Source: Gemmatimonadales bacterium
Lineage (GTDB): Bacteria; Gemmatimonadota; Gemmatimonadetes; Gemmatimonadales; GWC2-71-9
Length of the DNA stretch: 52,078 nt
Direction: 5' to 3'
Assembly (NCBI GenBank): GCA_041613315.1
Contig: JBFJHJ010000021.1
Coordinates: forward strand, 1 to 52,078
A program made the position numbers and the translations under genes. How positions within the stretch are numbered: position 1 is the first letter of the stretch; every line of letters begins with the position of its first letter. The notes below the pieces were generated by a model. The model saw nothing but the letters and a program-made list of their open reading frames with translations, was not told the origin of the DNA and ran no database searches. Positions 36,592 to 52,078 of this stretch are shown here, piece after piece.

Positions 36592-39231
36592 CTACAGCCC
36601 CAGCCAGTAGGCGATCTTCATCGCGAAGACGTTCGTCCCCTCGGCGCTGAAGCCGTCGCCGATGGCGCCGAAGGGCGAGCCGGTCGCGAGCGTCGTTTCG
36701 TCCCGGCGGTCCTGTTGCCACACGAGAAACAGGGTCGAGCCCGGCCGGAACTCCCAGCGCAACACGGCGCTCGTCCGGAGCGACGCGAGCCGGAAGTCGG
36801 GCTCGTCGAAGGTGAAGTCCGTGCGCCCGTCCCGGTCGACGTCCAGCGACACGTCGGCATCCCCGCCCGGGCGCGTCGCGCGGTCGACGTCGAGCCCGTC
36901 GAAGCGGTCGGCATAACGCTGGGCCTTGGGGTCCGCGGCCAGCTTCAGAGGCGCGTAGCGGCCCACGGAGGCGAACGGCTGGGCATAGAACTCGAACGAG
37001 AGTTTCGGGCTGAGCGCCAGGTCCGCCCGCAACGTGACGGACAGTTCACGACGCTCCAGTCGGCCGAACACATAGTACGTCGAGTCGCCCACCGTCTCCT
37101 GCGTGATGTACTGGCGGTCGTTCGTCTCCCATGTCGCGCGCCCGTCGAGGCTCAGCGACACACTGCCCGGCGGCCGCAACCGCACGCCGGCGTTGGCCCG
37201 CCACTGACCGGCCCCGGTCCCGTCCTCCCACTCACGGGTCACTCCGCCATTTATCGAGACCGGGCGCCGAAAATCGGTACGCCCGCCCAGCCGCCACTCC
37301 CACGCACCCGGCTCGCGCAGCGCCGGCCCACCGCGCAAGAGCCGCGTGGCGAGCGCGGGAAACGCGCGCTCGACATTGAGATTCAGATTCCAGTAGTTCA
37401 GGAAATCGCCTGAGAGCCGCGTTTCCAACGTCGTCCGGGTCCGCTCCCCACCGTAGGTGAACTCGGCGCGCTCCTCCACGCGCCACTCGAACTCGCGGAA
37501 CACGGAGCCGGGCGTCAGCCAGCGAAGCTCGGCCTCCACCGCCTGGACGTGCAGGTCGGTCTGGCGGAGAAAGCCCAGGTCGTTGATGTCGAAGCCGGGG
37601 CTGCGCGTCCCGTAGAACAGATTCCAGGTCGCGAAGCCCACCGCTTTGGCGAGGTGGGCGTACGCGGCGAACCCGTCCAGCGCGGTCCGGCTCGAGTCGA
37701 GCCGCGCGTGGGTCTGGTCGGGGCGCTGAAAATACCGCGCGGACCGCCGCTGCGTGCGGATCAGCGCGTCGACGGGCCCCTCGACCCGGGAGCCCAGCAG
37801 CGCCACGTCGTAGACGAACCGATCGCCGCCGAACCGCCCGTGCACATCCACGCCACCGGAAAAGGCCCGCGTGTGCAACTCGTCGAACGCGGGGTCGTTC
37901 AGGTCCCGCACGACACCAGCGAGCATCGCGCCATAGGTGAGCCGTCCACGGCGCAGCGTCCGCTGGGCGCGGATCGCCGTATAACTGGTGAGGGGCTCCA
38001 CCGGCGCGCGACCGTCCGCCCCGAGCGAGTCCACGATACGGACAGTCTCCCGTGCCGTGAGCGCCTGCGCGAGCCCCAAGGCCCAGCCCTTCCCCGCCTG
38101 GCCGGTGAGCTTGGCCGCGCCCAGGATGGTCGTCTGCCGCAGATCCTCCGCGTACCCGCCGCCGTCGTCGGCATCGGTCTGCGGGGCCCGTCCGATCCGC
38201 CGGGTATACACGAGCCCCTCCTCATCACCGCGTCCGCCACCGAACTCGTTGCGCTCCGGGGGCGTCATGCCGAACTGGAAGAGGTTGGTTCCCTCGATGA
38301 AAAAGGGGCGCTTCTCCGGAAAGAACGTCTCGAATGCCGACAGGTTGACCACCGCCGGATCCGCCTCGACCTGCCCGAAGTCCGGGTTGGCGGTGAGGTC
38401 GAGCGTGAGTCCGCTCCCCACCCCGAGCTTGAGATCTCCTCCCATCCGCACCGAGGCCTCCTCGCCGGTCGCGAAGGGGTCCCCCAAGACGGCGGGACTG
38501 AAGGCGGCGCTGCCGGCCGTGTAGGGGAGCAGCTCCATGCGTCGCGGCGTTGGGACATCGCTGAGGCCCACCAACTCTCCGTAGCGCGAGACCTCGCCGG
38601 CCTGGTCCCGAGGGAAGAACGGCCAGTTCTGCTCCTCGTTGCGGCGATTGATCGAGCGCCGGATGCGTACGCCGAACACCACCGACTCCGTCCCGGAGAA
38701 GCGCAGTTGGGAGAACGGGATCCGCAGCTCGACGGTCCAGCCCAGGGAATCGGTGCGGGTGGCCCAGTCGTAGACGGGATCCCACGAGTCGTCCCGGCCG
38801 CCGCCATCGTCATAGATGAACACGTCGCGTCGCGCGCCGGAGGGGTTGATGGAGAACTCGAACGCGGTTCGGCGGTCGTGAAACGAGTCGATGAAGAGGG
38901 TGAAGTAATCGGCCGCCGTCCGCTGGTCGCGCCGGACCAAGCGTCCGTATACCCGCCCCGGCTCACGATCGTAGCCGCGGAAGGCCACGTAGAGATCGCG
39001 ATCGGAATAGACGAACCGGACCTCGGTGGACTCGCTGGGGGCCGCTCCCTCCACGGGGTTCCGCTGGAGGAAGTCTTTGACGGGCGGCGCGTATCGCCAG
39101 GCGTCGTCATCCAGGACGCCGTCGATGGTCGGCGGCGTGCCCTGCACGCGGACGGCACGTGCCGCATCCTGAGCACCGGCGGCCAGTGGGGCGAGCGTGG
39201 TGAGTGCGATCAGCAACGTGGCCGCGCGCAT
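36592..39231 (-). CDS. CBM9-like sugar-binding domain plus DUF5916 outer-membrane beta-barrel protein
   Basis: PTIDGVLDD.AW, W.VELRIPFSQLRF, NPDFGQVEAD and FETFFPEKRPFFIEG; amphipathic C-terminal KIAYWLGL. Confidence 0.85.
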   Translation of the reverse strand: MRAATLLIALTTLAPLAAGAQDAARAVRVQGTPPTIDGVLDDDAWRYAPPVKDFLQRNPVEGAAPSESTEVRFVYSDRDLYVAFRGYDREPGRVYGRLVRRDQRTAADYFTLFIDSFHDRRTAFEFSINPSGARRDVFIYDDGGGRDDSWDPVYDWATRTDSLGWTVELRIPFSQLRFSGTESVVFGVRIRRSINRRNEEQNWPFFPRDQAGEVSRYGELVGLSDVPTPRRMELLPYTAGSAAFSPAVLGDPFATGEEASVRMGGDLKLGVGSGLTLDLTANPDFGQVEADPAVVNLSAFETFFPEKRPFFIEGTNLFQFGMTPPERNEFGGGRGDEEGLVYTRRIGRAPQTDADDGGGYAEDLRQTTILGAAKLTGQAGKGWALGLAQALTARETVRIVDSLGADGRAPVEPLTSYTAIRAQRTLRRGRLTYGAMLAGVVRDLNDPAFDELHTRAFSGGVDVHGRFGGDRFVYDVALLGSRVEGPVDALIRTQRRSARYFQRPDQTHARLDSSRTALDGFAAYAHLAKAVGFATWNLFYGTRSPGFDINDLGFLRQTDLHVQAVEAELRWLTPGSVFREFEWRVEERAEFTYGGERTRTTLETRLSGDFLNYWNLNLNVERAFPALATRLLRGGPALREPGAWEWRLGGRTDFRRPVSINGGVTREWEDGTGAGQWRANAGVRLRPPGSVSLSLDGRATWETNDRQYITQETVGDSTYYVFGRLERRELSVTLRADLALSPKLSFEFYAQPFASVGRYAPLKLAADPKAQRYADRFDGLDVDRATRPGGDADVSLDVDRDGRTDFTFDEPDFRLASLRTSAVLRWEFRPGSTLFLVWQQDRRDETTLATGSPFGAIGDGFSAEGTNVFAMKIAYWLGL

Positions 39232-39429
39232 CGAGCCTCGTCCCGACCGGCCCGGCGGACGTTAGCGCCCACCGACCAACCGGGGAAGGAAAAAGGAGCG
39301 TGGAGTCGGAGTCAGCAAAGGTAACAGGATCGGGCGTCGTCTTCACGCCTCCGTGTGCGCTACGCACGAGCGGGACCCTGCGTTGAGCGTCCTGCCGCTC
39401 CCGCCACGCCGGGCCTGTATATTCCGCCC

Positions 39430-40089
39430 ATGCCGGCCGATCGCCTCGACACCTACCTGTTCGACCTCGATGGGACGCTGATCGATTCGATCGAGCTCAT
39501 CATGAGCTCGTATCGCCACACGCTGCTCACGCACCGGGGGAGCGCGCCGGACGACGACGTGTGGCTGGCCGGGTTGGGCACACCGCTCTGGGTGCAATTC
39601 CGGCGCTTCACGGACGACCCTGCCGAGATCGCGGCCATGGTGGACACCTACCGGGAGCACAACCTGCGGCATCACGACGAGATGGTACGACCCTATCCGG
39701 GGGTTCACGAGGCCCTGGAGGCGCTGGCGGCCCGCGGGGTGCGCCTCGCGATTGTCACGAGCAAGCTGCGCGCGGGCACCCTGCGGGGACTCGCCCGGTG
39801 TGGCTTCGAGGACCTGTTCGAACTCCTGGTATGCGCCGACGACGTGGAACGACACAAGCCGGACCCGGAGCCCGTGCTCACCGCCCTCGAGCGGTTGGCC
39901 GCGGACGCCCGCCGGAGCGTGTTCATCGGAGACTCCCCGCACGACCTCGCCGCGGGCCGCGCCGCCGGCGTCCGCACCGGTGCGGCGCTCTGGGGACCGT
40001 TCCCGCGACGGGATCTCGAGCCCCACGAGCCCGACCACTGGCTCGCGGCGCCGTCGGCCATCGCGACGCTGGACGGCAGGTGGGCGTGA
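39430..40089 (+). CDS. HAD-IA family hydrolase (PpaX-like pyrophosphatase/phosphatase)
   Basis: FDLDGTL, TSK, KPDPEP and GDSPHD. Confidence 0.88.
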   Translation: MPADRLDTYLFDLDGTLIDSIELIMSSYRHTLLTHRGSAPDDDVWLAGLGTPLWVQFRRFTDDPAEIAAMVDTYREHNLRHHDEMVRPYPGVHEALEALAARGVRLAIVTSKLRAGTLRGLARCGFEDLFELLVCADDVERHKPDPEPVLTALERLAADARRSVFIGDSPHDLAAGRAAGVRTGAALWGPFPRRDLEPHEPDHWLAAPSAIATLDGRWA

Positions 40090-40151
40090 CGGGTGGCACG
40101 GCGGCCCGCCGCACCGCACCTTAGCGTGGCGGGGACGGAGCGGAGCACGGC

Positions 40152-41105
40152 ATGAATCAGGTCAACCAGTGGATCCAGCAGACGCTGGGCATGAGCCAGG
40201 CGACGCAGGGTCGCATCTTCGACTCGGTCGTCGCGATCCTGCTCCTCTGGGCCATCCGCCGTACCGTCCTCTGGTTCGCGTTCCGCCGCAGCGACGACGT
40301 CCGGGCACGCTACCGCTGGAAGAAGACCTCGCTGTACATCACCGTCCCGATCGGCATCCTCATCGTGGGGCGGATCTGGTTTGAGGGCTTCACCTCCCTC
40401 GCGACGTTCCTGGGCCTCGTCTCCGCCGGTCTCGCCATCGCGCTCAAGGACCTGCTCATCAACCTGGCCGGCTGGGGATTCATCCTGTGGCGCCGGCCCT
40501 TCGAGGTCGGTGACCGGATCGAGATCGGCAGCAACGCCGGCGACGTCATCGACCTCCGGATCTTCCAGTTCAGCCTGCTCGAGATCGGCAACTGGGTGCA
40601 TGCCGACCAGAGCACCGGCCGGATCATCCACGTCCCCAACGGGAAGGTGTTCGTCGAGTCGCTGGCCAACTACACGCGGGGCTTCCAGTACATCTGGAAC
40701 GAGATTCCGGTGCTCTTGACGTTCGAGAGCAACTGGCGCAAGGCGAAAGAACTGCTGCAGGCGATCGCTGAAAAGCACGCCGCCCATCTGACCGAAGACG
40801 CCGCGCGGCGCGTGCGGGAAGTCTCGCGGCGATTCATGATCTTCTACTCGCGGCTGACGCCGATCGTGTACACGACCGTCGCCGACAGCGGCGTCCTGCT
40901 CACGGTCCGCTATCTCTGTGAAGCCCGGCAGCGCCGCGGCACCACCCAGGCCGTCTGGGAAGACATCCTGGACGCCTTCGCCGCCTGCGAGGATATCGAT
41001 TACGCCTACCCCACCCAGCGGTTCTACGACAACCGGCTGGAGGGCAAAGCCGGGGCCCGGGCGCCCACCGAGGTGCTGCGACGGATCGACGGGGAGCGAG
41101 GGTAG
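40152..41105 (+). CDS. mscS: Small-conductance mechanosensitive channel family protein
   Basis: TM helices; GLAIALKD...N, RPFEVGDRIEIG..GDV and IHVPN. Confidence 0.88.
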   Translation: MNQVNQWIQQTLGMSQATQGRIFDSVVAILLLWAIRRTVLWFAFRRSDDVRARYRWKKTSLYITVPIGILIVGRIWFEGFTSLATFLGLVSAGLAIALKDLLINLAGWGFILWRRPFEVGDRIEIGSNAGDVIDLRIFQFSLLEIGNWVHADQSTGRIIHVPNGKVFVESLANYTRGFQYIWNEIPVLLTFESNWRKAKELLQAIAEKHAAHLTEDAARRVREVSRRFMIFYSRLTPIVYTTVADSGVLLTVRYLCEARQRRGTTQAVWEDILDAFAACEDIDYAYPTQRFYDNRLEGKAGARAPTEVLRRIDGERG

Positions 41106-41241
41106 CGGGCACCGGCCGCACCCCGGCGCCGGCGCGCCCCGGCGATCTCCCCGCGTGAACCCTTCCCAACGTTCTCGCCGTACGGCCTATCTAAGGAAAG
41201 ACCCTCACTACCAGCCACCGTTCGCCTTGGGAGGCGATCTC

Positions 41242-42339
41242 ATGACTGTGTCGGCCACATCGCCGCGTGCGCGGCGCGTGACGGCGATTGGGCTTCTGAC
41301 GGCGGGCCTCGCGGCGCTCGCGACGGGCCCGGTCGCCGGACAGGAGCGGTTCGAGTTGTCGAGCGACCATGTCGCCGTGTACAACCTCGTCGGCGAGGTC
41401 AACGTGGAGCCCACGTCGGGATCGGCTGTGATCGTGGAGGTCCGCCGGGGCGGTCGCGACGCCGGCCAGCTGCGCATCGAGCGCGGCCCGCTCGAGGGGC
41501 GCGAGACCCTTCGCATCCTCTACCCGGGAGACGCGATCCGCTACCGAGAGCTGTCCGGGGGGGGCCACACGACCCTTCGCGTCCGCGATGACGGGACGTT
41601 CGGCGACCACCACGGCGGCCGGCGTGACCGGTGGCGCGACGGGCGGCGTGTCGAGATTCGCGGGGACGGGCCGGGGCTCGAGGCCTACGCGAACCTCACG
41701 ATCCGCGTCCCCGCCGGGCAGCGGATCGCCGTCAATCTCGGCGTCGGTGCCGCGTCACTCCGCAACGTGCACGGGCAGATCACGGTGGACGCCGCGAGCG
41801 CGCCCGTCACCGCCACGGGCTCCCGCGGCACCCTCTCGATCGACGTCGGGTCGGGCACCGTGAGCGTCACCGATGCCGAGGGCGACGTGGACCTCGACAC
41901 CGGTTCCGGGAGCGTGAACGTGAACGGCGTCCGGGGGGACATCCTCCGCGTGGACACGGGCTCCGGCAGCGTGATCGCGTCACGCGTGGCCGTCGCCACC
42001 CTGGACATCGATACCGGCTCCGGCGACATCGAGGTCGGCGCCAGCACCGCGGACCGCATCCGGCTGGACACGGGCAGCGGATCGGTCGTCATGGACGTCG
42101 CCTCGGCGCCCCGGTCGATCGAGATCGACACCGGGTCCGGCGGCGTGACGCTGACGATTCCTGCGTCGTTCGGCGCGCGTGTCGAGATCGAGACGGGATC
42201 CGGCGACATTGATGTCGGGTTCCCGGTGACGGTGACGCGCTGGGAGCGCGACCACCTCGTGGGCACGATTGGCGACGGGAGCGGCCGCCTCGTGATCGAT
42301 ACGGGATCGGGCTCCGTGAGGTTGAAGAAGCGTTCGTAG
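41242..42339 (+). CDS. DUF4097 family beta-strand repeat (putative adhesin) protein
   Basis: GGAGG RBS; signal peptide; about eight (D/E)(T/V)GSG(S/D/G/T)(V/I) repeats. Confidence 0.85.
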   Translation: MTVSATSPRARRVTAIGLLTAGLAALATGPVAGQERFELSSDHVAVYNLVGEVNVEPTSGSAVIVEVRRGGRDAGQLRIERGPLEGRETLRILYPGDAIRYRELSGGGHTTLRVRDDGTFGDHHGGRRDRWRDGRRVEIRGDGPGLEAYANLTIRVPAGQRIAVNLGVGAASLRNVHGQITVDAASAPVTATGSRGTLSIDVGSGTVSVTDAEGDVDLDTGSGSVNVNGVRGDILRVDTGSGSVIASRVAVATLDIDTGSGDIEVGASTADRIRLDTGSGSVVMDVASAPRSIEIDTGSGGVTLTIPASFGARVEIETGSGDIDVGFPVTVTRWERDHLVGTIGDGSGRLVIDTGSGSVRLKKRS

Positions 42340-42364
42340 GCGCGCGACCGGCAGACCCCGTGCG

Positions 42365-42392
42365 AGGGGCGGGGCGGCGGTGCCCCGCCCCT
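42365..42392 (+). terminator. 11-bp hairpin after DUF4097 gene
   Basis: AGGGGCGGGGC-GGCGGT-GCCCCGCCCCT followed by a pyrimidine-rich tail. Confidence 0.55.
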
Positions 42393-42448
42393 TCTGCCCC
42401 CTCTCCGTTCCCGCTACCTTCCGAGTCGTGCCTCCGCGGGAGCGTGCC

Positions 42449-43567
42449 TTGCCTTTCGTGACCTTCGACCTCGAGCGCTGGCAGAGCACCTGGGAGAACC
42501 AGGTGCGCTACAACCTCTCGGAAAGCGGCGTCCACCCCCTCTCCATCGCCGAACTGCTGGACTTGAGCGGCGGCTCGGTGGACGCGTTCACGGCCCTCCG
42601 CATGGTCTACAGCCAGTCCGACGGCACCGAGGAGTTGAGAGCCGCCATCGCGGCGCTGTATCCGGGCGCGACGCCGAACCACGTGACGGTGACCGTAGGA
42701 AGCTCGGAAGCGAACTTCATCGCGTGCTGGACGTTGATCGAGCGCGGCGACCGGGTGGTCGTGGTGACGCCGACCTACATGCAGACCCACGGTCTGGCGC
42801 GGAACTTCGGCGCGGAGGTCGTGGAGCTTCCGCTTCGGCCCGAGCGGCGGTGGCAGCCCGACCCGGCGGAGATCGCGCGCGCCATCACGCCGGGCACGAA
42901 GCTCGTGGTGGTGACCAACCCCAACAATCCGACCGGCCAGATCCTCGCGGACGACGCGAGCGCGGTCCTGCTTGATCGGGTACGCGCGACCGGGGCCTGG
43001 CTGCTCGCCGATGAGGTCTACCGGGGCGCGGAGCGTCAGGGCGCCATCACCCCGTCCTTCTGGGGCGGCGCCGAGCGCGTCCTCGCCGTGAATGGGCTGT
43101 CGAAGGCCTACGGGCTCCCCGGGCTGCGCATCGGCTGGATCGTCAGCTCACCCGAGTTCAAGCAGTCGGTCGTCCGGCGGCACGACTATACCGTGATCGG
43201 TCCAAGTCCCGCCAGCGATTACCTGGCGCGGCGCGCGCTCGGCGCGCGCGAGCGGATTCAGGCACGCACGCGCCGCATCCTCAACACCAACTGGCCGACC
43301 CTGGAGCGGTGGCTCACCGGGTTCGATGGGTTGTTCGACTGGATCGAGCCCGCGGCCGGGGCAATCTGCATGGTGCGCTACCGGACGGAGCTCGGCGCCC
43401 TCGATCTCGTGGAGCAGATTCGAGCGCGGCACGGCATCCTGCTCGTCCCCGGGGATCACTTCGACCTGCCGCGACACCTGCGACTGGGTTACGGGAACGA
43501 ACCCGACGAGTTCGCACCCGCGCTGCGGGACCTCGCGACCGGCGTGCGGTCCGTCTTGATGGACTAG
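42449..43567 (+). CDS. Class I/II PLP-dependent aminotransferase
   Basis: NLSESG, NPNNPTG, DEVY and SKAYGLPGLRIG (PLP Lys). Start is either TTG 42449 (GGGAG RBS) or GTG 42428. Confidence 0.88.
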   Translation: MPFVTFDLERWQSTWENQVRYNLSESGVHPLSIAELLDLSGGSVDAFTALRMVYSQSDGTEELRAAIAALYPGATPNHVTVTVGSSEANFIACWTLIERGDRVVVVTPTYMQTHGLARNFGAEVVELPLRPERRWQPDPAEIARAITPGTKLVVVTNPNNPTGQILADDASAVLLDRVRATGAWLLADEVYRGAERQGAITPSFWGGAERVLAVNGLSKAYGLPGLRIGWIVSSPEFKQSVVRRHDYTVIGPSPASDYLARRALGARERIQARTRRILNTNWPTLERWLTGFDGLFDWIEPAAGAICMVRYRTELGALDLVEQIRARHGILLVPGDHFDLPRHLRLGYGNEPDEFAPALRDLATGVRSVLMD

Positions 43568-43610
43568 GCCGACGCCGAAGCGCGGCGCACGGTGGGAGGC
43601 GCCTACCGGC

Positions 43611-45815
43611 TCACCACGTGCCGCGCACCGCGTACGGAACGAGCTTGTTCTTCAGCCAGCCCGTGATGTACCCGAACACGTTCACGCGCGCCGTGCCGCC
43701 GGAAATGCCGTGGGCTTTGTTCGGGTACAGTCGCATGTCGAACTGCTTCCCCGCCTCTTCCAGCTTCTGCACGAGCTGAGTCGTGTTCTGGGAATGCACG
43801 TTGTCGTCGCCGGTGCCATGGATCACCAGCAGGTCGCCCTGTAGCTGGTCGACATACGCGAGGGGCGCGCCCTGCCGATACCCGGCCGCGTTTTCCTGCG
43901 GCGTGCGCATATAGCGCTCGGTGTAGATCGTGTCGTACAGACGCCAGTCCGTGACGGGAGCCACGGAGACCGCCGCCGCAAACACGTCGCCTCCGGTGAA
44001 CAGGGACATCAGCGACATGTAGCCGCCGTAGCTCCATCCCCAGATGGCCATCCGTCGGGCGTCAACGAACGGCAGCGAGCCGAGATACCGCGCCGCGGCA
44101 ACCTGGTCGGCAGCCTCGATCTGGCCCAATCGGAGATAGGTGAGCTTCTTGAAGTCCCGGCCTCGAGCGCCCGTGCCGCGGTTGTCCACGCTGGCGATCA
44201 CGATCCCCTCGCGGGCCAGCAGCTGGTGCCAGAGCGACCGGGAGCCACCCCACGCGTTCGTCACCGTCTGCGATCCCGGCCCGCCGTAGACATACAGCAG
44301 CAGGGGATACTGGCGTGACGGGTCGAAGCCCGGCGGCTTGATCAGATAGGCGTTGAGCTCCACCCCGTCCGCCACGGGAATTCTCAGATACTCCGGTGGC
44401 ACGAGCCCCAGCGCCTCCACATTGGCGTGGGCCGTGCCGCTTGGCGTGATGTCTCGGACCCGGCGCCCGTCCGCACTCCGCAGCACCTGAACCGGCGGCC
44501 GCGCCGCCGTGGAATAGGTGTTGACGTACAGGGTATAGGTCGGATTGAACTGGGCGCGATGCGTGCCGCCCTCGGCGGACACGCGCGTGAGACGACCGCC
44601 GTTGAGGCCGACCCGATACACCGGTCGGACGAGGGCGCCGTCTCCCGCCCCCGTGAAGTACACGACGGACCCGCGCTCGTCGACCCCGAACACATCCGTC
44701 ACATCCCACTGCCCCTGCGTGATCTTGCGGATCAGCCGGCCGTCGCGCCGAAACAGGAAGAGCTGGCGGTAGCCGTCCCGCTCGCTAGGGTACACGAACT
44801 GCCGCCCGCCGTCCAACCAGATCGGCTCCTCGGCGTCCACCCACGCGGGGTCGGCATCGGTCATGATGACTTGCGACACGCCGGTCCGCACGTTGGCGAG
44901 GAGCAGGTCGAGCCGGTTCTGATGCCGATTCAGTCGCGTGAGCCATACCTCCTCGGCCGAATCGGCGAAATCCATGGCCGCGACGTAGATGTCGCGCTCG
45001 GCCCCGAGGTCGATCCACGTGACGGCGCCGGTGGCGATCTCCACCACCCCGATGCGGACGTCGGAGTTCGCGGTGCCGGCCTTGGGATACCGGACCGGTG
45101 TCAGCGCCGGGTACAGCGCCGTCTCGTCCAGCAGATAGAAGGGGCGGATCGCCGACTGGTCGAGACGCCAGAACGCTATCCGGCCCCCGTCCGGGCTGAA
45201 CCGGAACGCGTCCCACAGGGACAGCTCTTCCTCGTATACCCAGTCGGTGGTGCCGTTGATCACGTCCTCGCTGCCGTCGGAAGTGAGACGGCGCTCCTCG
45301 CCGCTTGTGAGATCGCGGACGAAGAGATCATGATCGCGGACGAAGCCCACGTACCGGCCATCCGGCGAGAACTTCGCCGCCAGCTGCGGACCATCGCTCG
45401 CCGACACCGGCGTGAGCGTCCGGCTGCGGACATCCCACACGTAGAACGTGCCCATGGCGCTGCGGCGCCACCCGCGAATGGTATTCGTCCGGAGGAGAAT
45501 CTTCGAGCGGTCGCGGGAGAAGGTGAACTCGTCGATCGTCACCGGCGTCGCCCCGCCCACCGGCACGAGATCCGCGCCGCCCACGACGAGCTCCCGCCGC
45601 CCGCTCGCGGCCTCGACACGGTAGAGATCCGTCCGATCCCCGTTCTGCTCCACGACCGCGTAGTACGCCTCGTCGATCCAGGTGAGATCCGCCAAGGTCG
45701 GGGAGAGCTCGGACGAGGCGAAGATGCGCTCGAGGGTGAGGTCAGCATCCTGCGCCGCGAGAGGCGAAGCCAGCGCGAGGCCGAGGCCGGCGAGATACCA
45801 CAGAGTACGATTCAT
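43611..45815 (-). CDS. S9B dipeptidyl peptidase IV family protein
   Basis: Signal peptide; DWVYEEE, YPKAG, YGGP, GWSYGG, DDNVH and catalytic His. Confidence 0.93.
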   Translation of the reverse strand: MNRTLWYLAGLGLALASPLAAQDADLTLERIFASSELSPTLADLTWIDEAYYAVVEQNGDRTDLYRVEAASGRRELVVGGADLVPVGGATPVTIDEFTFSRDRSKILLRTNTIRGWRRSAMGTFYVWDVRSRTLTPVSASDGPQLAAKFSPDGRYVGFVRDHDLFVRDLTSGEERRLTSDGSEDVINGTTDWVYEEELSLWDAFRFSPDGGRIAFWRLDQSAIRPFYLLDETALYPALTPVRYPKAGTANSDVRIGVVEIATGAVTWIDLGAERDIYVAAMDFADSAEEVWLTRLNRHQNRLDLLLANVRTGVSQVIMTDADPAWVDAEEPIWLDGGRQFVYPSERDGYRQLFLFRRDGRLIRKITQGQWDVTDVFGVDERGSVVYFTGAGDGALVRPVYRVGLNGGRLTRVSAEGGTHRAQFNPTYTLYVNTYSTAARPPVQVLRSADGRRVRDITPSGTAHANVEALGLVPPEYLRIPVADGVELNAYLIKPPGFDPSRQYPLLLYVYGGPGSQTVTNAWGGSRSLWHQLLAREGIVIASVDNRGTGARGRDFKKLTYLRLGQIEAADQVAAARYLGSLPFVDARRMAIWGWSYGGYMSLMSLFTGGDVFAAAVSVAPVTDWRLYDTIYTERYMRTPQENAAGYRQGAPLAYVDQLQGDLLVIHGTGDDNVHSQNTTQLVQKLEEAGKQFDMRLYPNKAHGISGGTARVNVFGYITGWLKNKLVPYAVRGTW

Positions 45816-45907
45816 GGCTCGTGGGATACAGGGTGTGCGTTGATGTGAGTCACGGCAGCGAAATGTACACCGTTGACCGGCCGATGCCGATGGGACGACC
45901 GCCGGCC

Positions 45908-48583
45908 TTAGAACATGAAGCCGGAGCGGACGAACACACCGAGCCGCTCGGCGCTCCTGGCCACCGCGAGGGTCAGTGTGTTTGCGCGGTGGATCGGCGC
46001 GAACCAGAGCCCGCCGCCGACCGCGCCGTGCCACTCTCCGGGGGACGCGCCCGCCACGTAGACGCGCCCGACGTCCCCGAGCGCGAAGACCCCGAACTCG
46101 CCGTTCACGATCCAGCGCACTGGGGAAACGAACACGCGCAACTCTGCGTTGCCGTAGAGCGCGGCGTCACCGGCGAAGCGGTACTCGCGGAAGCCACGGA
46201 CCGTGGCGCCCCCGCCCAGAAACGCCGCGGCGAAGAACGGGAAGTTCCCCAGCGCCTTCTCAGCACCCACACGAACGGCCAGGGTGGGACGCGCCGGTAC
46301 GCCCGACGCCGTCACGTACGCCGCGATGTCTCCCCCCACGCTCCCGAACGCGGCGTCCGCGCTCAGGATCGGCGGCGCGTAGCGCCCGTACGCCCGCAGC
46401 ACCGCACCACGGCGCGCTGCCACCGAGTCGTCGCGGGCGTCGAGAGTGAGTCCCGCCTCCACGCCCAGATAGCCGAAGGTCCCAATCCCGCGCGGCCCGA
46501 GGTTCCCCAACAGCGTGCCCGGATCGTCCGCCGTATGTCGGAGCGTCCCGAGGACCGCCAGGGTCGCCTGCACGCCGGAGGCCACGCGAACCCCCAACGT
46601 CGGCCGCAGCTCGTACACCTGTTGCCGCACATTGAAGACGTCGTCCGGCTGGTCGGCGGGGGCCGCGTTGCCGAATCCGTAGAACCGGGTGAGGCCGATG
46701 CCCGACACGCGCAGCCTGAGCGCGCCACTCACCCGCGGAGCCAGCACCGGGAACTCGAGGTCCACGCGTGCCCGCGGCCGGTGGCGTGCCGTCGCGTACG
46801 CGAGCCGCGCGTCGAGCCGGTAGACATACGGCTCCCGACGAAACCCGTATTGGTAGACGATGACGCCGCCGCCCACGGTGAGCCCGAGGTCCGGATCGAA
46901 TCCCAACCACGTTGCCGGCAGGCGGAAGCTCCCCCAATTGTCGGCAGGGCGTGCGAACGCGTTGGGGGGCGGGGGTGGGGCGAAGCGCTCCTCCATGGGC
47001 AATGAGTCGAGTCGGTCGCGAGCGACTCGCGTCGACGGGCCCACCACGAAGCGGTTCTCCCCACGTCCGTCATAGAAGTGGGTCCGAGCGTTGCCACGCA
47101 CCCTCGAAGAGTCCACCAGCTCGTCGTCCCCACCGCCGCCCATCACCCGCACCGTTATACTCCGCCCCACGTCGCCCTGGACGACCACGCGATCATCACC
47201 ACCCTGGAGATAGAGGCGGATCTCCCGCGTCTCGGAGGACAGAAAGCGTCGGCGGAGGTACGGCGGTCGCGCGTCCCCACGCTGCCGGCGCACGGCGAAC
47301 CTCACCTCCACCGACCCGTCGTCTCGCCGCTCCACCTCGGCGACTTCGTCGCGGCCGGTGCCGTGGAGGTCCACGTACTGGGCGAGGATCGCATAGTATC
47401 GGGCGGCCTGGGCCGGCAACTCGCCGCGGCGCCGGCGCAGCGCGCGTTCGAGTTCGGCGCCGTTCCGGGCGTACACCGCGGGTGGCAGCTCGCGAACCGC
47501 CGCCGCGATGACCGAGTCGGTGAGGCGCGCCGCGACGGCTGCGGCCACCGAATCCCACACCGAGCGCTCCACTGCACCGAGGATGCGGCGGTCGAGCTGG
47601 TAGCCGTTGTACATGGCCCCGAACACGTTGCCGTAGGACGGGCCGTAGCTCACGAACTGCGGCCGGTACACACGGATCACGGTCATGATGAGCCCGTCGA
47701 GCGCCACGAACGCCTGATCGCGGTCCCGGGGGATGGGGAGCCAACGGCGGCGCCCCCGGTCCTCCACCCGTGCCCAGCGCCACTGGTCGGTGTGCCGATC
47801 TCGGTCGCCCAGGTACAGGTCCATGAGGCGCGCGGCGAGATAGCTCGTCGCGTCCACGCGGTCGTCCGGGTCTTCCTCCAGCCGCTCGAAGAGGCCGGCC
47901 GTGCTCACGATGCGTGTGAAGCCGCGCCAGCCCGGCGACCCGCCGGGACCCTCATCAGGACGTTCCTCGAACGTGCCGAGCCTCCCGGCGAACTCCTCGC
48001 GATACTCGCCCAACCGCGGATCGTCCGGCATCACCGCGAGGCGCGGGTCGACGTGCAACACGCCGGCGGCCTCGAGCAGGGGTGCCACCACGAGCGCCGC
48101 GTAGGGATGCTGGGCGCTGATCATGTCCTGCACCACGGTCTCCACGAGCGTCCCGCGGAGATCGGCCGGCAGCCCCTGGCTGGGATCTTTGTCCACCGAG
48201 CGGAAGAGGTAACGGCGTCCGTCGCCGCCGCGGAAATGGAGTGAGCGGGTCTGGCCGAACCCGCCCCGTCGGAGGACCGTGAGGCCCACGGCCGTAGACG
48301 CCAGATCGAGCACGGCCACCTCGATCGGCATCGCCCAGAGATCGCGATACTTGCTGCCGAAGACGGTGCGGTGCAATCCGCCGGCGCGGTAGTGGGCGCC
48401 CGGGGCCACCGTCACCGTGCGGGCGCTCAGCGAATCGACCGGACCTTGCGCGGCGAGGCCGACGGGGACGACCGCCCCGCCCACGACCGTCAGTGCGAGG
48501 ACCGCCAGCCTGCACGGCCAGAGCGGCGAGCCCCGCGCTCGAGGACCAGTCGGGGGCTCAGCCCCCCACGAGCCACGTCGCAT
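45908..48583 (-). CDS. Omp85 (BamA/TamA) superfamily outer-membrane protein with N-terminal atypical kinase-like domain
   Basis: Loop-6 VRGF motif and C-terminal SGFMF beta-signal. N-terminal region has GGFGQT, DRDRHTDQW and PIPRDRDQAF. Start approximate. Confidence 0.8.
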   Translation of the reverse strand: MRRGSWGAEPPTGPRARGSPLWPCRLAVLALTVVGGAVVPVGLAAQGPVDSLSARTVTVAPGAHYRAGGLHRTVFGSKYRDLWAMPIEVAVLDLASTAVGLTVLRRGGFGQTRSLHFRGGDGRRYLFRSVDKDPSQGLPADLRGTLVETVVQDMISAQHPYAALVVAPLLEAAGVLHVDPRLAVMPDDPRLGEYREEFAGRLGTFEERPDEGPGGSPGWRGFTRIVSTAGLFERLEEDPDDRVDATSYLAARLMDLYLGDRDRHTDQWRWARVEDRGRRRWLPIPRDRDQAFVALDGLIMTVIRVYRPQFVSYGPSYGNVFGAMYNGYQLDRRILGAVERSVWDSVAAAVAARLTDSVIAAAVRELPPAVYARNGAELERALRRRRGELPAQAARYYAILAQYVDLHGTGRDEVAEVERRDDGSVEVRFAVRRQRGDARPPYLRRRFLSSETREIRLYLQGGDDRVVVQGDVGRSITVRVMGGGGDDELVDSSRVRGNARTHFYDGRGENRFVVGPSTRVARDRLDSLPMEERFAPPPPPNAFARPADNWGSFRLPATWLGFDPDLGLTVGGGVIVYQYGFRREPYVYRLDARLAYATARHRPRARVDLEFPVLAPRVSGALRLRVSGIGLTRFYGFGNAAPADQPDDVFNVRQQVYELRPTLGVRVASGVQATLAVLGTLRHTADDPGTLLGNLGPRGIGTFGYLGVEAGLTLDARDDSVAARRGAVLRAYGRYAPPILSADAAFGSVGGDIAAYVTASGVPARPTLAVRVGAEKALGNFPFFAAAFLGGGATVRGFREYRFAGDAALYGNAELRVFVSPVRWIVNGEFGVFALGDVGRVYVAGASPGEWHGAVGGGLWFAPIHRANTLTLAVARSAERLGVFVRSGFMF

Positions 48584-49709
48584 ACGCCTCGGTGCCTCGA
48601 CCGTTCGCATCGACCATGACGACGGCCAAGCGGACGCGCTGATCGGACAGGATGTCGAGCCGCATGTATCCGCTGCGGGCCGCAGCGAACCGCGTGCCGC
48701 TGATCGCGAACACCGGCGAAACGTGCCCATAGATGCCCGTTCCGCTCACAAGGAGGTAGGGCGGCGTCCCCGGGTCGATGACCTGGAGGTTGTGTTCGTG
48801 ACCGGAGGCGAACACGAGCGGCGGCTCGTCGGCGAACACGCTCCGGAGCGAGTCTCGGAGCGCGCGGTAGGGCGGGGACCTGAGATCTTGCGAGGCGACG
48901 CCGGCCTGTCGGAGCAGCGGATAGAGCGACCCCACGAGCGGGAGGGGGACCCAGAGCCAGCTACGGATATTGCGCAGCGGGAACACGTGGTCCTTCCATC
49001 CGAAATGGCCGCCGTGCAGCCCACCGGATTCGACGGGATGGTGCGCCGCCACCACCACGATCCGGCCGGCCGCGTTGCGGATCGCGCCGCGCAAGGTGGC
49101 CGTGATCTCGCCCTTGGTGTCGGCGACGCACAGGGACGTCGGATGCGTCGGCTTGGGACCCGTTCCCAACCACCACTGCGTATCCAACAGCACCAGCCGC
49201 ACGACGTCGTCCACGTCGTATGTGTCGGGCCCTGGGCAGCCGTCAGACGGGCGGAGTGCGGCGCGCCCGTCGCCGACGCGCGCGATGAACCGGTCCTGTC
49301 GCCGTATCCCCTCCCACCCCTCGCGCCAGCCGTGGTTGCCGGGCACGAAGACGCCGCGGGCGCCGCTGTCGCGCAACACGGCGACCTGGGCGTCCAACCG
49401 GCGTTCGGCCTCGGGACGCCATGGATCCGTCGAATCGGGCATCCCGTCCGGGTACAGGTTGTCCCCCAGGTAGATGACCACCGTCCGATCGGGATGGAAG
49501 GCCGCGTCGGCGGTGAGCGCGGCCAGGACGGGCTCGAAACGCGGATGCGGCGCACCGGCGTCGCCGACGAGGAAGAGGGTCACACGGATCGAGTCGGCGG
49601 GAGCGGATGGGACGGGCACGGGAGAGGGAAGCTGGGCCTGGCCCGCGCACCCCCCAAGGCCCATCCAGAGGACTGCCGCCACGCGGACCGGCAGGCGGCC
49701 GACCCTCAC
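48558..49709 (-). CDS. Metallophosphoesterase (purple acid phosphatase-like) lipoprotein
   Basis: Lipobox LGGC; GDAG, GDNLY, GNHG, AAHHP and GHEH; GTGA overlap with the DUF4956 gene. Confidence 0.85.
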   Translation of the reverse strand: MRVGRLPVRVAAVLWMGLGGCAGQAQLPSPVPVPSAPADSIRVTLFLVGDAGAPHPRFEPVLAALTADAAFHPDRTVVIYLGDNLYPDGMPDSTDPWRPEAERRLDAQVAVLRDSGARGVFVPGNHGWREGWEGIRRQDRFIARVGDGRAALRPSDGCPGPDTYDVDDVVRLVLLDTQWWLGTGPKPTHPTSLCVADTKGEITATLRGAIRNAAGRIVVVAAHHPVESGGLHGGHFGWKDHVFPLRNIRSWLWVPLPLVGSLYPLLRQAGVASQDLRSPPYRALRDSLRSVFADEPPLVFASGHEHNLQVIDPGTPPYLLVSGTGIYGHVSPVFAISGTRFAAARSGYMRLDILSDQRVRLAVVMVDANGRGTEAYATWLVGG

Positions 49710-50761
49710 GTGACGAGGTCGCGCAGGCCCTGAATGGATGTCAGCTCCGCGCCGCGCACCACCGGCGAGTCCGCCAGTAGCTCCACGAGGTCCGTGACGT
49801 TGGCCTTCTTCTTGAAGCGGACGAGATACTCGAGCGCCCAGGTCCCGGAGCGGCCGGGGAACACGTCCGCCAAGCGCCACCGCTTGGCATAGTCCTCGAG
49901 CAGGTCGTCGAGCGCTTCTTCGGCCGCCTGCCGGTCGGCGGCATGGATGAGCAGCAGGTGCTTGAACCGGCGCGTGCCGGCCATCGCGTCGGCACGGACC
50001 AGATGGTGAAGTCGCGCCGCACGCTCCTCCACTCGCAACCGCTCGTCGGCCGTGAGCGGCGCCACCATCGCCGGTTCGCCGACCGTGACGGCGCGCGCGC
50101 CCCGGTCCGGCGCCAACGCTTCCGCCAGCGTCACCGGTCCCGCCGGCAGGGCGAAGGCGCGACGCTTCGCGCTCGTTTCGAATCGCCACAGCTCCGCGAT
50201 CACCAGGCAAAAGACGAGCGACAGCACGCCGGCGATGATCCAGGACTGTACCCCCGCGGCCAAGCCGATGCCGATCGCCACGAACGCGAAGACGGCGTCC
50301 TTCACGTCCTTGAGCGTGGTGCGGAACCGGACGGCCGCCACGATGCCGGCCAGCGCGAACGCGAGCGCGACGCTGCCGCGCACGATGAGCACGACGCCCG
50401 CAACGGCGATGGGCAGGACCACGATCATCTGGACGACGGACGTGTCGTAGCCTTCGTGTCCCTTCGTCGCGGTGTACGTCCACGCCACCGGCAGCGCAAA
50501 GACCAAGCTGCCGGCCATCGCGAACAGGACGAGGAGCGCGGTGTTGATGAGCGGCCCGAGCGCGGGCACCGGCATATCCGGACGCTCGACCGCTCCGCGG
50601 AACTGCTCGGCTGCAGGCAGGGCCTCGCTGAAGTCGAGGGCGAGCATGTGGCTCAGCCACGGGAAGGCCCGCGCCAAGATGACCAGCACAACGCCGACCG
50701 CGGCATAATACGCGAGGATGCCGGCTACGGGGGACGTGCGCAGTCGTGCCTGTATCGTCAT
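49706..50761 (-). CDS. DUF4956 domain membrane protein
   Basis: Multi-TM; signature ALAFALAGIVAAVRFRTTLKD.KDAVFAF.AIGIGLAAG; small soluble C-terminal domain. Confidence 0.8.
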   Translation of the reverse strand: MTIQARLRTSPVAGILAYYAAVGVVLVILARAFPWLSHMLALDFSEALPAAEQFRGAVERPDMPVPALGPLINTALLVLFAMAGSLVFALPVAWTYTATKGHEGYDTSVVQMIVVLPIAVAGVVLIVRGSVALAFALAGIVAAVRFRTTLKDVKDAVFAFVAIGIGLAAGVQSWIIAGVLSLVFCLVIAELWRFETSAKRRAFALPAGPVTLAEALAPDRGARAVTVGEPAMVAPLTADERLRVEERAARLHHLVRADAMAGTRRFKHLLLIHAADRQAAEEALDDLLEDYAKRWRLADVFPGRSGTWALEYLVRFKKKANVTDLVELLADSPVVRGAELTSIQGLRDLVT

Positions 50762-50863
50762 CACCACCCTCCGAATTCGACCACCGGCCACTAGCCGGGC
50801 TCCGGCTCCGCACCACCGGACACACGTCAGCGGCGTGGAGGCCGGTTCCCGCGGCGACGCGCG

Positions 50864-52078
50864 CTACCGGGCTGGACCGCGATAGATGATGCGGTAGATG
50901 CGTCCCCCGGAGTCATCGCTCACGTAGAGTGACCCGTCGGGCCCCTGCGCCAACCCCACCGGCCGGTGCGCCGCCTCGCGGGGCGACGTGGTCGCGCCGG
51001 CGAACCCGTCGGCGAAGACCTCCCACTCACCGGTCGGATGATCGCCCTCGAACGGGGCGAACACGATGTTGTACCCGCCCTGCGGCAAGGGGGCGCGGTT
51101 CCACGAGCCGTGGAACGCGATGAAGGCGCCGCCACGGTAGCGCGCCGGGTACTGGGCCCCCGTGTAGAACAGCAATCCATTGGGCGCCCAGTGTCCCGGG
51201 AAGCCGATCAACGGGTCCTTCTTATCGGCGCAGCGGCCGATCTGAGCGCCGTCACCGCCGTATTCGGGCGCCAGCACCTTGCGCTGTACCTCTGGGTCAT
51301 AAAAGCAGTAGGGCCAGCCGTAGTCGTCCCCCGCCTCGATCCGTAGGAACTCCTCCGCGGGCTTCTCCGCACTCGCCTCGACGGTGAACAACTCACCCCA
51401 GTTCTGGTTGAGCTGGTCGCGTCCATGCACGGCGCCGTAGAGTCGTCCGTCCTGTGGACGCACCGCGAGCGCCACCGTGTTGCGCAGGCCGGTCGCGAAG
51501 CGCCGTCCGTCCTGGTGCCGCTGGTTGCGCCGGTTGGCGGTGAACCGCCAGATGCCGGCACGGGTGTCCAGCTGAGGACACGGGTCCAACCCCGGGGAGC
51601 CCGCCGCGCGATCCTGCTGCTGACAGCTGTTGGACGGCGACCCGACGTTCACGTAGAGCGCATTGCCCCGACCGAGCGCGATGCTCTTGGCGCGATGCGA
51701 CCGATCGGCGGGGAGGTCACGAACGATCGTGTCGGGCGCACCCGCGGGCTCCAGGGCGCCCGGCCGCCACCGGTAGCGCATGACGGCGTCGTTGGTCGAG
51801 TAATACAGGAACCCTCCATCCAGTTCGACGTCGTCACCGGTACCGCTCCCAAACCGCCGCTCGAGGTCAGCCACGCCATCGCCGGTCGTGTCGCGGAGGA
51901 CCAGAATGCCGCCGTCGCCGTCACGCGTGCGGCCGAGCGCCACCAGGACGTCCCCGTTGCGCGCCACGGTGAGATGCCGCGCGGGGCCGACCCTATCCGC
52001 CACGATGACGGCGCAGAACCCCTCGGGCAGGGTGAGACCGGCGTGGTCCGGAGCGCACGCCGGGCCGCGGCGCTGGGC
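50864..52078 (-). CDS. PQQ-dependent sugar/sorbosone dehydrogenase family protein (5'-truncated by window edge)
   Basis: Frame open to the window end (LTLPEGFCA). GSPSN.C, ATGLRN, YGWPYC, HWAPNG, AFHGSWNR and RPVGLA.GPDGSLYVSDD. Confidence 0.88.
   Translation of the reverse strand, partial: AQRRGPACAPDHAGLTLPEGFCAVIVADRVGPARHLTVARNGDVLVALGRTRDGDGGILVLRDTTGDGVADLERRFGSGTGDDVELDGGFLYYSTNDAVMRYRWRPGALEPAGAPDTIVRDLPADRSHRAKSIALGRGNALYVNVGSPSNSCQQQDRAAGSPGLDPCPQLDTRAGIWRFTANRRNQRHQDGRRFATGLRNTVALAVRPQDGRLYGAVHGRDQLNQNWGELFTVEASAEKPAEEFLRIEAGDDYGWPYCFYDPEVQRKVLAPEYGGDGAQIGRCADKKDPLIGFPGHWAPNGLLFYTGAQYPARYRGGAFIAFHGSWNRAPLPQGGYNIVFAPFEGDHPTGEWEVFADGFAGATTSPREAAHRPVGLAQGPDGSLYVSDDSGGRIYRIIYRGPAR

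Follow-up and report, generated by a model that had tools for sequence, protein, structure and literature searches.

Within a window of 52,078 nucleotides (the whole stretch of DNA that was analysed, contig JBFJHJ010000021.1 of a Gemmatimonadales bacterium), the minus-strand segment 45908..50761 carries three co-oriented, overlapping genes, which encode an inner-membrane protein of the DUF4956 family, a metallophosphoesterase of the purple-acid-phosphatase type which is predicted to be a lipoprotein, and an Omp85 outer-membrane barrel with a predicted atypical kinase domain at its N-terminus. The comparison of this segment with related loci and genomes indicates that the set formed by the exported kinase, the phosphatase and an inner-membrane partner is a real and conserved module, whose function is for the present read from sequences and structure models. 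The individual parts of the module were already known; what is new in the present work is that the inner-membrane partner is exchangeable, and that its presence is tied to the integrity of the kinase. The original prediction for this segment reported a GTGA start/stop overlap between the DUF4956 and phosphoesterase genes (49706..49709, minus strand) and a 26-nucleotide overlap between the end of the phosphoesterase gene and the start of the kinase-Omp85 gene (48558..48583, minus strand), and both are exact in the sequence.

Architecture of the three proteins

The kinase-Omp85 gene (45908..48583, ATG 48583 to TAA 45908, minus strand like all features described here) encodes 891 amino acids. Sequence and hydropathy predict a signal peptide at residues 1-45 (48449..48583), hydrophobic at 27-41 and ending LAA-Q, with AQ as the family consensus. 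It is followed by a domain of the CotH/PI4K/CtkA/HipA atypical kinase type at residues 48-405 (47369..48442), assigned from the model and its motifs, by a linker of short beta strands at residues 406-521 (47021..47368), which in the secondary structure of the model replaces POTRA domains, and by the Omp85 barrel at residues 552-891 (45911..46930), with a VRGF loop motif and a C-terminal Phe. The full-length model (pLDDT 90.7) consists of a kinase-sized domain, the beta linker and 16 barrel strands, with no POTRA domain, and its barrel matches BamA/TamA at Z 25 in structure comparison. PF01103 is matched in Pfam at 28.8 bits against a cut-off of 24, and the NCBIfam Omp85 family model matches below its cut-off.

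The kinase-like character claimed for the N-terminus is borne out by the model of the domain alone (pLDDT 93.1), which has a kinase fold. Structure comparison matches it to CotH (Z 15.2, rmsd 4.1, 249 residues aligned), PI4KII-alpha (Z 14.2) and CtkA (Z 13.0), with further fold matches to ATM, HipA and Fam20, and the top Foldseek match is CtkA (E 1e-4); because protein and lipid kinases tie in these matches, the substrate class is not readable from the fold. At the level of sequence, identity to Fam20 and CotH structures is 10-14%, PF08757 (CotH proper) gives no Pfam match at E 1, and a sequence search of solved structures with the kinase-barrel gave no match. The motifs expected of such an enzyme consist of a G-loop (GGFGQT), K132, E206, a catalytic loop (DRDRHTDQW) and DRD at 287-289. 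Among 155 kinase-domain rows from the fetched loci, G107, G108, R128, K132, D260, D262, R263, H264, Q267 and D287-R288-D289 are each kept in 132-151 rows, and when 6 fragments are left out, K132, D262, R263, D287 and D289 are all kept in 139 of the 149 relatives that cover the core. From their positions in the motifs, K132 is taken to be the kinase lysine, D262 the catalytic Asp, and D287 and D289 the metal-binding Asp residues. The barrel protein is thus predicted from its model to carry an atypical kinase with intact catalytic motifs, and the domain family comprises 2647 clusters at 50% identity.

The phosphoesterase gene (48558..49709, GTG 49709 to TGA 48558) encodes 383 amino acids, and its description as a purple-acid-phosphatase lipoprotein is sustained. 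PF00149 scores 19 bits, below its cut-off of 21.5, and a profile of 21 relatives matches mammalian purple acid phosphatase at E 3.8e-16. The motifs GDAG, GDNLY, GNH, HHP and GHEH are present, and all seven metal ligands of the purple acid phosphatases, as specified by the motifs DxG, GDxxY, GNH(D/E), VxxH and GHxH, are in place (D50, D83, Y86, N125, H223, H304 and H306). A lipobox-like LGGC at residues 18-21 contains the predicted lipid anchor site, Cys21, which is aligned in 14/14 of those rows of the 21-relative alignment that include the N-terminus. The protein is homologous to the fused N-terminal domain of two Bacteroidota phosphatase-kinase-barrel proteins of 1250-1350 amino acids (L068 and L077, at 33 and 29% identity).

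The DUF4956 gene (49706..50761, ATG 50761 to TGA 49706, with GGAGG upstream of the start) encodes 351 amino acids. PF16316 matches at 39.2 bits against a cut-off of 30.6 and hydropathy gives five hydrophobic segments, in agreement with the inner-membrane location that had been proposed. An alignment based on 27 neighbours of kinase-barrels shows the protein to be of a long Gemmatimonadota type, with an extra N-terminal helix, four core helices and a soluble C-terminal part. Its Atlas neighbours are DUF4956 proteins, one cluster having 10% MgtC, and a sequence search of solved structures found no match. Pairwise HHalign comparison of the membrane domains of DUF4956, PycTM and DUF202, the last of which is the membrane domain of VTC, yields probabilities of 0.3-1.9% from shallow profiles. 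Four-copy complex predictions of the DUF4956 membrane part score 0.14 and 0.12 against a mark of 0.42, values that speak neither for nor against an assembly.

Partner genes and their co-occurrence with the kinase

Two sets of kinase-barrel loci were compiled. The first holds 79 loci from a scan which covered 5 of the 64 parts of the genome collection, with neighbours taken within about 8 kb and genes called by a codon-based script, many of the contigs being short; the second holds 60 kinase loci from a sample of 151 genomes of the window's phylum, Gemmatimonadota, the window genome included, and the two sets may share genomes. Neighbours in the first set are an SdiA-regulated propeller (31 loci), DUF4956 (25), the phosphatase (23), the polyphosphate kinase PPK1 (19, of which 10 carry an N-terminal CYTH domain), PycTM (14) and NTT (5), and in the second set the phosphatase (22), DUF4956 (19), the propeller (16), NTT (13) and PPK1 (11). 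DUF4956 and the phosphatase occur together at 10/79 and 8/60 loci, while DUF4956 and NTT never share a kinase locus (0/79 and 0/60). The propeller, common at these related loci, was not found in the window genome.

The presence of a partner gene follows the state of the kinase. A partner gene lies in the locus of 112 of the 139 intact kinase copies, the other 27 having none nearby, whereas all 10 catalytically degenerate copies stand in loci without any partner gene. These pseudokinase-Omp85 copies, which lack the catalytic residues, are situated near efflux genes or another Omp85-like gene (L126, L130, L131, L133-L138 and L140).

The same pattern appears at the level of whole genomes. A genome of the 151 counted as kinase-positive when its best match had an E below 1e-100 and covered the domain; one copy with an internal deletion was excluded. 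By this measure the kinase-barrel is found in 49 genomes and DUF4956 in 65, with both in 33; the phosphatase subfamily is found in 30, every one of which has the kinase-barrel; and an NTT subfamily linked to the kinase is found in 19, of which 17 have the kinase-barrel. DUF4956 or the linked NTT is present in 43 of the 44 genomes with an intact kinase. The linked NTT is present in 11 of the 16 kinase genomes that lack DUF4956, and in 10 of these the fetched loci place it next to the kinase; of the other five, one has an NTT fragment, and four, which belong to a single genus, have only degenerate kinases. The NTT proteins carry nucleotides, and PMC5381601 describes what they do in free-living bacteria as unexplained. 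At 14 loci (L043, L052, L053, L088-L092, L094, L097, L099, L100, L102 and L119) the NTT lies in an operon which runs Ser/Thr kinase, in some cases a DegP-like protease, NTT, in some cases the phosphatase, kinase-Omp85 and NTT-HEAT; the NTT-HEAT protein encoded on contig C9 of the window genome falls outside the kinase-linked NTT subfamily.

DUF4956 also occurs without the kinase-barrel, in 32/151 genomes, and 26 of these 32 have a secreted 350-amino-acid CotH-like family, which has no Pfam name, is present in 47/151 genomes and usually adjoins DUF4956. In all, 59 of the 65 DUF4956 genomes have the kinase-barrel or the CotH-like protein, and DUF4956 is present in 6 of the 71 genomes with neither kinase. 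A CYTH-PPK1 is found in 30/151 genomes, 27 of them with DUF4956 and all 30 with the kinase-barrel or the CotH-like kinase, and DUF4956-PPK1 fusions make up 5 of the 39 DUF4956 loci fetched, 3/3 of those checked being confirmed by Pfam. Because of the fusions, the adjacency and these co-occurrence counts, DUF4956 is regarded as the partner of polyphosphate kinase in the first place and of either exported kinase in the second.

The fusion proteins (L141 and L143-L146) have 924-942 amino acids and are neighboured by CHAD, SixA, second PPK1 and Ppx genes. Genes of the CotH-like family (L145, L147-L151, L153, L154, L156, L157, L160-L167, L169-L171 and L174-L176) are often also near CYTH-PPK1 or a divergent gene of the alkaline-phosphatase family. 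In the window genome, contig G000:C20 (2134-8088, locus L001) carries a second intact kinase-Omp85 copy, 51% identical, with a CYTH-PPK1 directly behind it and a Ser/Thr kinase-TPR gene which converges on the latter. This CYTH-PPK1 is the sole PPK1 found in the window genome, which is 82.9% complete, and the CYTH part of such proteins weakly matches an inorganic triphosphatase (E 0.0016) in a search of solved structures.

A second sample of 151 genomes was drawn from the phylum Bacteroidota, where kinase and PycTM are each present in 63 genomes and occur together in 54, against 26 expected by chance, PycTM lying within 10 kb of the kinase in 41 of the 63 kinase genomes. The metallophosphoesterase-Omp85 fusions mentioned for this phylum in the original prediction are real, phosphatase and kinase being in one frame at 15 of the 30 loci examined. 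PycTM beside the kinase-barrel is likely to represent a housekeeping, non-defence use of this effector domain of Pycsar. Either HD-PycTM or a lone PycTM stands beside the kinase-barrel at L037, L038, L041, L042, L077 and L079 as well as in the Bacteroidota sample, mostly in single copy, and class III cyclase genes sometimes adjoin such loci.

Relation to described systems

The earlier label of an undescribed system was too strong. Heinz and Lithgow (2014; PMC4104836) named a 'Metallo' subfamily of Omp85 proteins, and one column of their Table S3 records a CtkA-like (3akj) domain between phosphoesterase and barrel, with 62 occurrences; some members are marked there 'N-terminal; truncated protein', which corresponds to a kinase-barrel without the phosphoesterase, so that the architecture, split forms included, was already on record. 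In their main text the domain goes under the name of metalloprotease, the words 'kinase', 'CtkA' and 'Helicobacter' have 0 occurrences in it as available, and gene neighbours, donor and function are not treated; a 2024 paper (PMC11116518) still gives the subfamily, in its available text, as an uncharacterised 'metalloprotease'. The kinase-like domain was therefore recorded and yet overlooked. By its sequence features the window's phosphatase plus kinase-barrel is a split form of this subfamily: it shares the purple-acid-phosphatase-like PF00149 domain, the CtkA-like domain placed before the barrel, and a C-terminal Omp85 barrel of 16 strands without POTRA domains, and it differs from the fused members in that the phosphatase, a lipoprotein, is encoded by a gene of its own which overlaps that of the barrel protein, and does not belong to the same chain. 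Bacteroidota relatives of about 1250 amino acids show the phosphoesterase-kinase-barrel architecture of the subfamily.

A second known arrangement is found in Gram-positive pel loci, which include accessory genes for cotH, a VTC-type polyphosphate polymerase and DUF4956 (10.1101/768473). A later study (10.1101/2024.04.20.589940) suggests that the polyphosphate of this set stays cytoplasmic, and in the available text of neither paper is donor export proposed. Both systems keep DUF4956 together with an atypical kinase that is exported and an enzyme that makes polyphosphate; in the window-type module, unlike the Gram-positive trio, the kinase is barrel-anchored and is not PF08757, the polymerase is PPK1 or CYTH-PPK1 and not PF09359, a phosphatase is added, and there are no pel genes. 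The statement in the original prediction that DUF4956 keeps the company of VTC-type polymerase and CotH genes is accordingly correct in kind, as the PPK1 fusions and adjacency indicate, but not in the families named, neither PF09359 nor PF08757 having been found in the window genome at its 82.9% completeness. The sequences suggest that CYTH-PPK1 and kinase-Omp85 serve there as functional stand-ins for the VTC polymerase and CotH.

Anchoring of an enzyme domain by an Omp85 barrel is shared with PlpD and those Omp85 proteins that are patatin-like, the enzyme domain of PlpD remaining in the periplasm (PMC11116518, in its available text); the window protein differs in having a kinase fold in place of patatin, a beta-rich linker in place of POTRA domains, and a requirement for a high-energy donor. 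With the kinases Fam20, of the secretory pathway, and CotH, of the spore coat (reviewed in PMC12189002), it shares the kinase fold group and a predicted action outside the cytoplasm, and differs by its low identity and its beta-barrel membrane anchor. In the literature searched, whose coverage leaves out most subscription journals, no paper was found that describes the operon, its connection with PPK1 or the exchange of partners. The Riemerella metallophosphoesterase MPPE, a possible relative of the phosphatase, is described in a review as secreted by the T9SS.

A possible phosphorylation cycle in the periplasm

A kinase that is exported depends on a supply of donor, because ATP is held to be absent from the periplasm. 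The module is interpreted here, with a degree of belief somewhat short of even, as a kinase/phosphatase pair of the periplasm which would draw its phosphoryl donor, most likely ATP, from an inner-membrane supplier that can be exchanged. By analogy with PlpD, the kinase domain would hang in the periplasm below the outer-membrane barrel, with the lipoprotein phosphatase as its likely partner. The inner-membrane partner, whether DUF4956 with CYTH-PPK1, an NTT or PycTM, would pass ATP out and ADP back, and in the DUF4956 version PPK1 may use polyphosphate to regenerate ATP at the membrane. ATP is favoured over polyphosphate because the NTT-linked and DUF4956-linked kinase copies share the same motifs. 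CotH, CtkA, HipA and Fam20 are protein kinases, and for this reason the substrate would be in the first place an envelope protein, with an envelope lipid as the next candidate; the phosphatase would remove the phosphate mark from it.

In the Golgi, a nucleotide carrier supplies the kinase, and secreted phosphatases counteract it. It is conceivable, although we regard it as rather doubtful, that the periplasm runs a Golgi-like cycle of this kind in diderms of several phyla, with the job of exporter having been taken up on three separate occasions: by DUF4956 together with polyphosphate kinase, by an NTT running in reverse and by a PycTM outside defence. If true, this would at one stroke assign a function to the Metallo Omp85 family, to DUF4956 and to the NTTs that free-living bacteria possess, and would overturn the view of a periplasm without energised phosphotransfer. 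Apart from that wider statement, a kinase-fold domain with an export signal and retained catalytic residues is widespread, as the 2647 clusters and the 49/151 and 63/151 genomes in two phyla show, and its gene neighbours name concrete candidates for donor delivery, so that the question of extracytoplasmic phosphorylation becomes testable in cultivable Bacteroidota (relatives of Pedobacter and Flavobacterium). The result is relevant, too, to the still unexplained cotH-polymerase-DUF4956 genes that occur in Gram-positive biofilm loci, and to the role which NTTs play in free-living bacteria.

Several observations weigh against the interpretation of a donor-fed kinase/phosphatase pair. Every characterised NTT imports nucleotides, according to the available text of PMC5381601, and DUF4956 has been described as MgtC-like with an ACT domain, MgtC being a regulator and no transporter (10.1101/2024.04.20.589940, in its available text). 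The claim that the three genes are syntenic in other genomes stands insofar as they recur (in the exact window order DUF4956-phosphatase-kinase at 2/79 and 3/60 loci), but they do not form a fixed unit: L002, the most closely related locus, shares its downstream genes with the window and has no phosphatase, the phosphatase subfamily is missing from 19 of the 49 kinase genomes of Gemmatimonadota, and the triad fails in Bacteroidota, because DUF4956 is within 10 kb of the kinase in 0/63 genomes, the PycTM inner-membrane protein taking its place. DUF4956 is present in 47/151 Bacteroidota genomes and accompanies the kinase in 25, against 19.6 expected. In a kinase tree built with FastTree the partner types track the tree, with 5 changes for NTT and 9 for PycTM, far below shuffled values, and 9 of the 10 degenerate copies are one clade; because the partner types follow the kinase clades, the partner swaps amount to few independent events. 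No kinship among the three partner types was detected. The 24 DUF4956 neighbours on which the CotH-like profile is based come from this very set of genomes; of the 23 genomes outside the profile set which have the family, 18 contain DUF4956. The evidence for this family consists of motifs, one weak Pfam match among 7 (E 0.001) and an Atlas cluster with 17% CotH; HHalign against the kinase-barrel alignment gives a probability of 0.8% and a sequence search of solved structures no match, so its identity as CotH, read from sequence, is offered as a lead only.

Two residues count on the same side. Q267 in the catalytic loop of the kinase is constant in 141/155 rows, at a position where such kinases usually have Asn. 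The window phosphatase is unique in having GNHG (residue 127; window 49329-49331), in contrast to the GNHD of 43/43 other copies, 44 scorable copies including the window's having been compared and 4 fragments left out, and it thus lacks the acidic residue after GNH which characterizes purple acid phosphatases. The same letter is found at this codon position in contigs from four sequencing runs, three of which are possibly the source of the analysed DNA.

In yeast, the VTC complex moves polyphosphate into the vacuole. An alternative, judged unlikely, is that polyphosphate is itself the exported donor: PPK1 would make the chain, DUF4956 would thread it into the periplasm in a VTC-like manner, and the kinase would use it directly. 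The DUF4956-PPK1 fusions and adjacency fit this account, as do the CHAD, Ppx and SixA genes close by and the Gram-positive trio of cotH, VTC-type polymerase and DUF4956 (10.1101/768473, in its available text). It is opposed by the G-loop, lysine, hinge and catalytic motifs, which are the same in NTT-linked copies, whose NTT relatives carry nucleotides, as in DUF4956-linked ones, and by the HHalign comparison of DUF4956 with DUF202, where the probability is 1.9% from shallow profiles.

No more probable than polyphosphate export is the possibility that DUF4956 is an MgtC-like regulator of polyphosphate kinase, with which the kinase-barrel and phosphatase are merely co-regulated, so that nothing is exported and the two envelope proteins scavenge or remodel envelope phospho-compounds. 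The MgtC/ACT assignment (10.1101/2024.04.20.589940, available text; Atlas) points in this direction, and it is consistent with the loose gene order, with the 32/151 genomes that have DUF4956 and no kinase-barrel, and with the varied phosphatases among the neighbours, which include PAP2, alkaline phosphatase, a second metallophosphoesterase and a phytase/apyrase-like propeller. Such a scheme would nevertheless leave an intact exported kinase without a donor, and it does not explain why an NTT stands in the position of DUF4956, why a different secreted kinase-like gene is found in 26 of those 32 genomes, or why the degenerate copies are partnerless.

It is very unlikely that the kinase domain is carried to the cell surface or into the medium by its own barrel, in the manner of type Vd systems, to become a CtkA-like effector which uses environmental ATP. 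CtkA is the best Foldseek match and translocation was raised for the Metallo subfamily by Heinz and Lithgow (PMC4104836, available text), but POTRA domains are absent and the PlpD domain stays periplasmic (PMC11116518, available text). The tie to inner-membrane and cytoplasmic genes, the presence of the kinase in 49/151 and 63/151 mostly environmental genomes, and the lack of any PADLOC match for the three window proteins also speak against it.

PKL kinases favour the forward reaction, which counts against a flow in the inward direction. This last alternative, in which the kinase fold would make periplasmic ATP from ADP and an outside donor (polyphosphate, for example) for import by NTT or DUF4956, draws on the import of ATP by characterised NTTs (PMC5381601, available text) and on a barrel that might admit the donor, but is highly improbable, as a co-located phosphatase would waste the donor and a soluble, barrel-less CotH-like protein has these partners too.

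Gene calls, flanking genes and further loci

Third-position guanine-cytosine (GC) content is 0.86-0.89 across the frames of all three genes. An open reading frame of 755 amino acids at 48558-50825 was rejected as a real gene, since the upstream part of it overlaps the DUF4956 gene in another frame and has a third-position GC of 0.48. The possibility that a frameshift artefact has split a fused phosphatase-kinase gene was likewise rejected, each gene having its own export signal and split forms being common. A contig from a public run covers the whole segment with one letter different and no gap, although it is possibly the source of the analysed DNA. The sequencing runs containing the segment are marine metagenomes, none of those listed being of RNA type, and the named relatives are chiefly Gemmatimonadota. 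No sigma-70-type promoter or convincing terminator was found in 45500-51200. An anti-phage defence system was considered and rejected, PADLOC giving 0 families for the three window proteins; among the parts of the module it matches only the Bacteroidota neighbour PycTM.

The flanking genes are ordinary. Upstream (50864-52078) lies a glucose/sorbosone dehydrogenase-like propeller gene; the downstream flank (36592-45816) begins with a dipeptidyl peptidase IV gene, beyond which, on the opposite strand, there are genes for an aminotransferase, a DUF4097 protein, a small mechanosensitive channel, a HAD hydrolase and a DUF5916 protein.

Two kinase-Omp85 paralogues are present, often around a propeller gene, at each of the loci L015, L023, L028, L033, L040, L046, L051, L056, L070, L075, L121 and L125; the pairing could hint at a heterodimer. 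At L017, from Bacteroidota, a free kinase gene is followed by a phosphoesterase gene and then a barrel-only gene. L172 (genome G060), in which an internally deleted kinase-Omp85 of 195 amino acids is followed by DUF4956, the propeller and a shortened phosphatase, is by the look of its genes a decaying locus.

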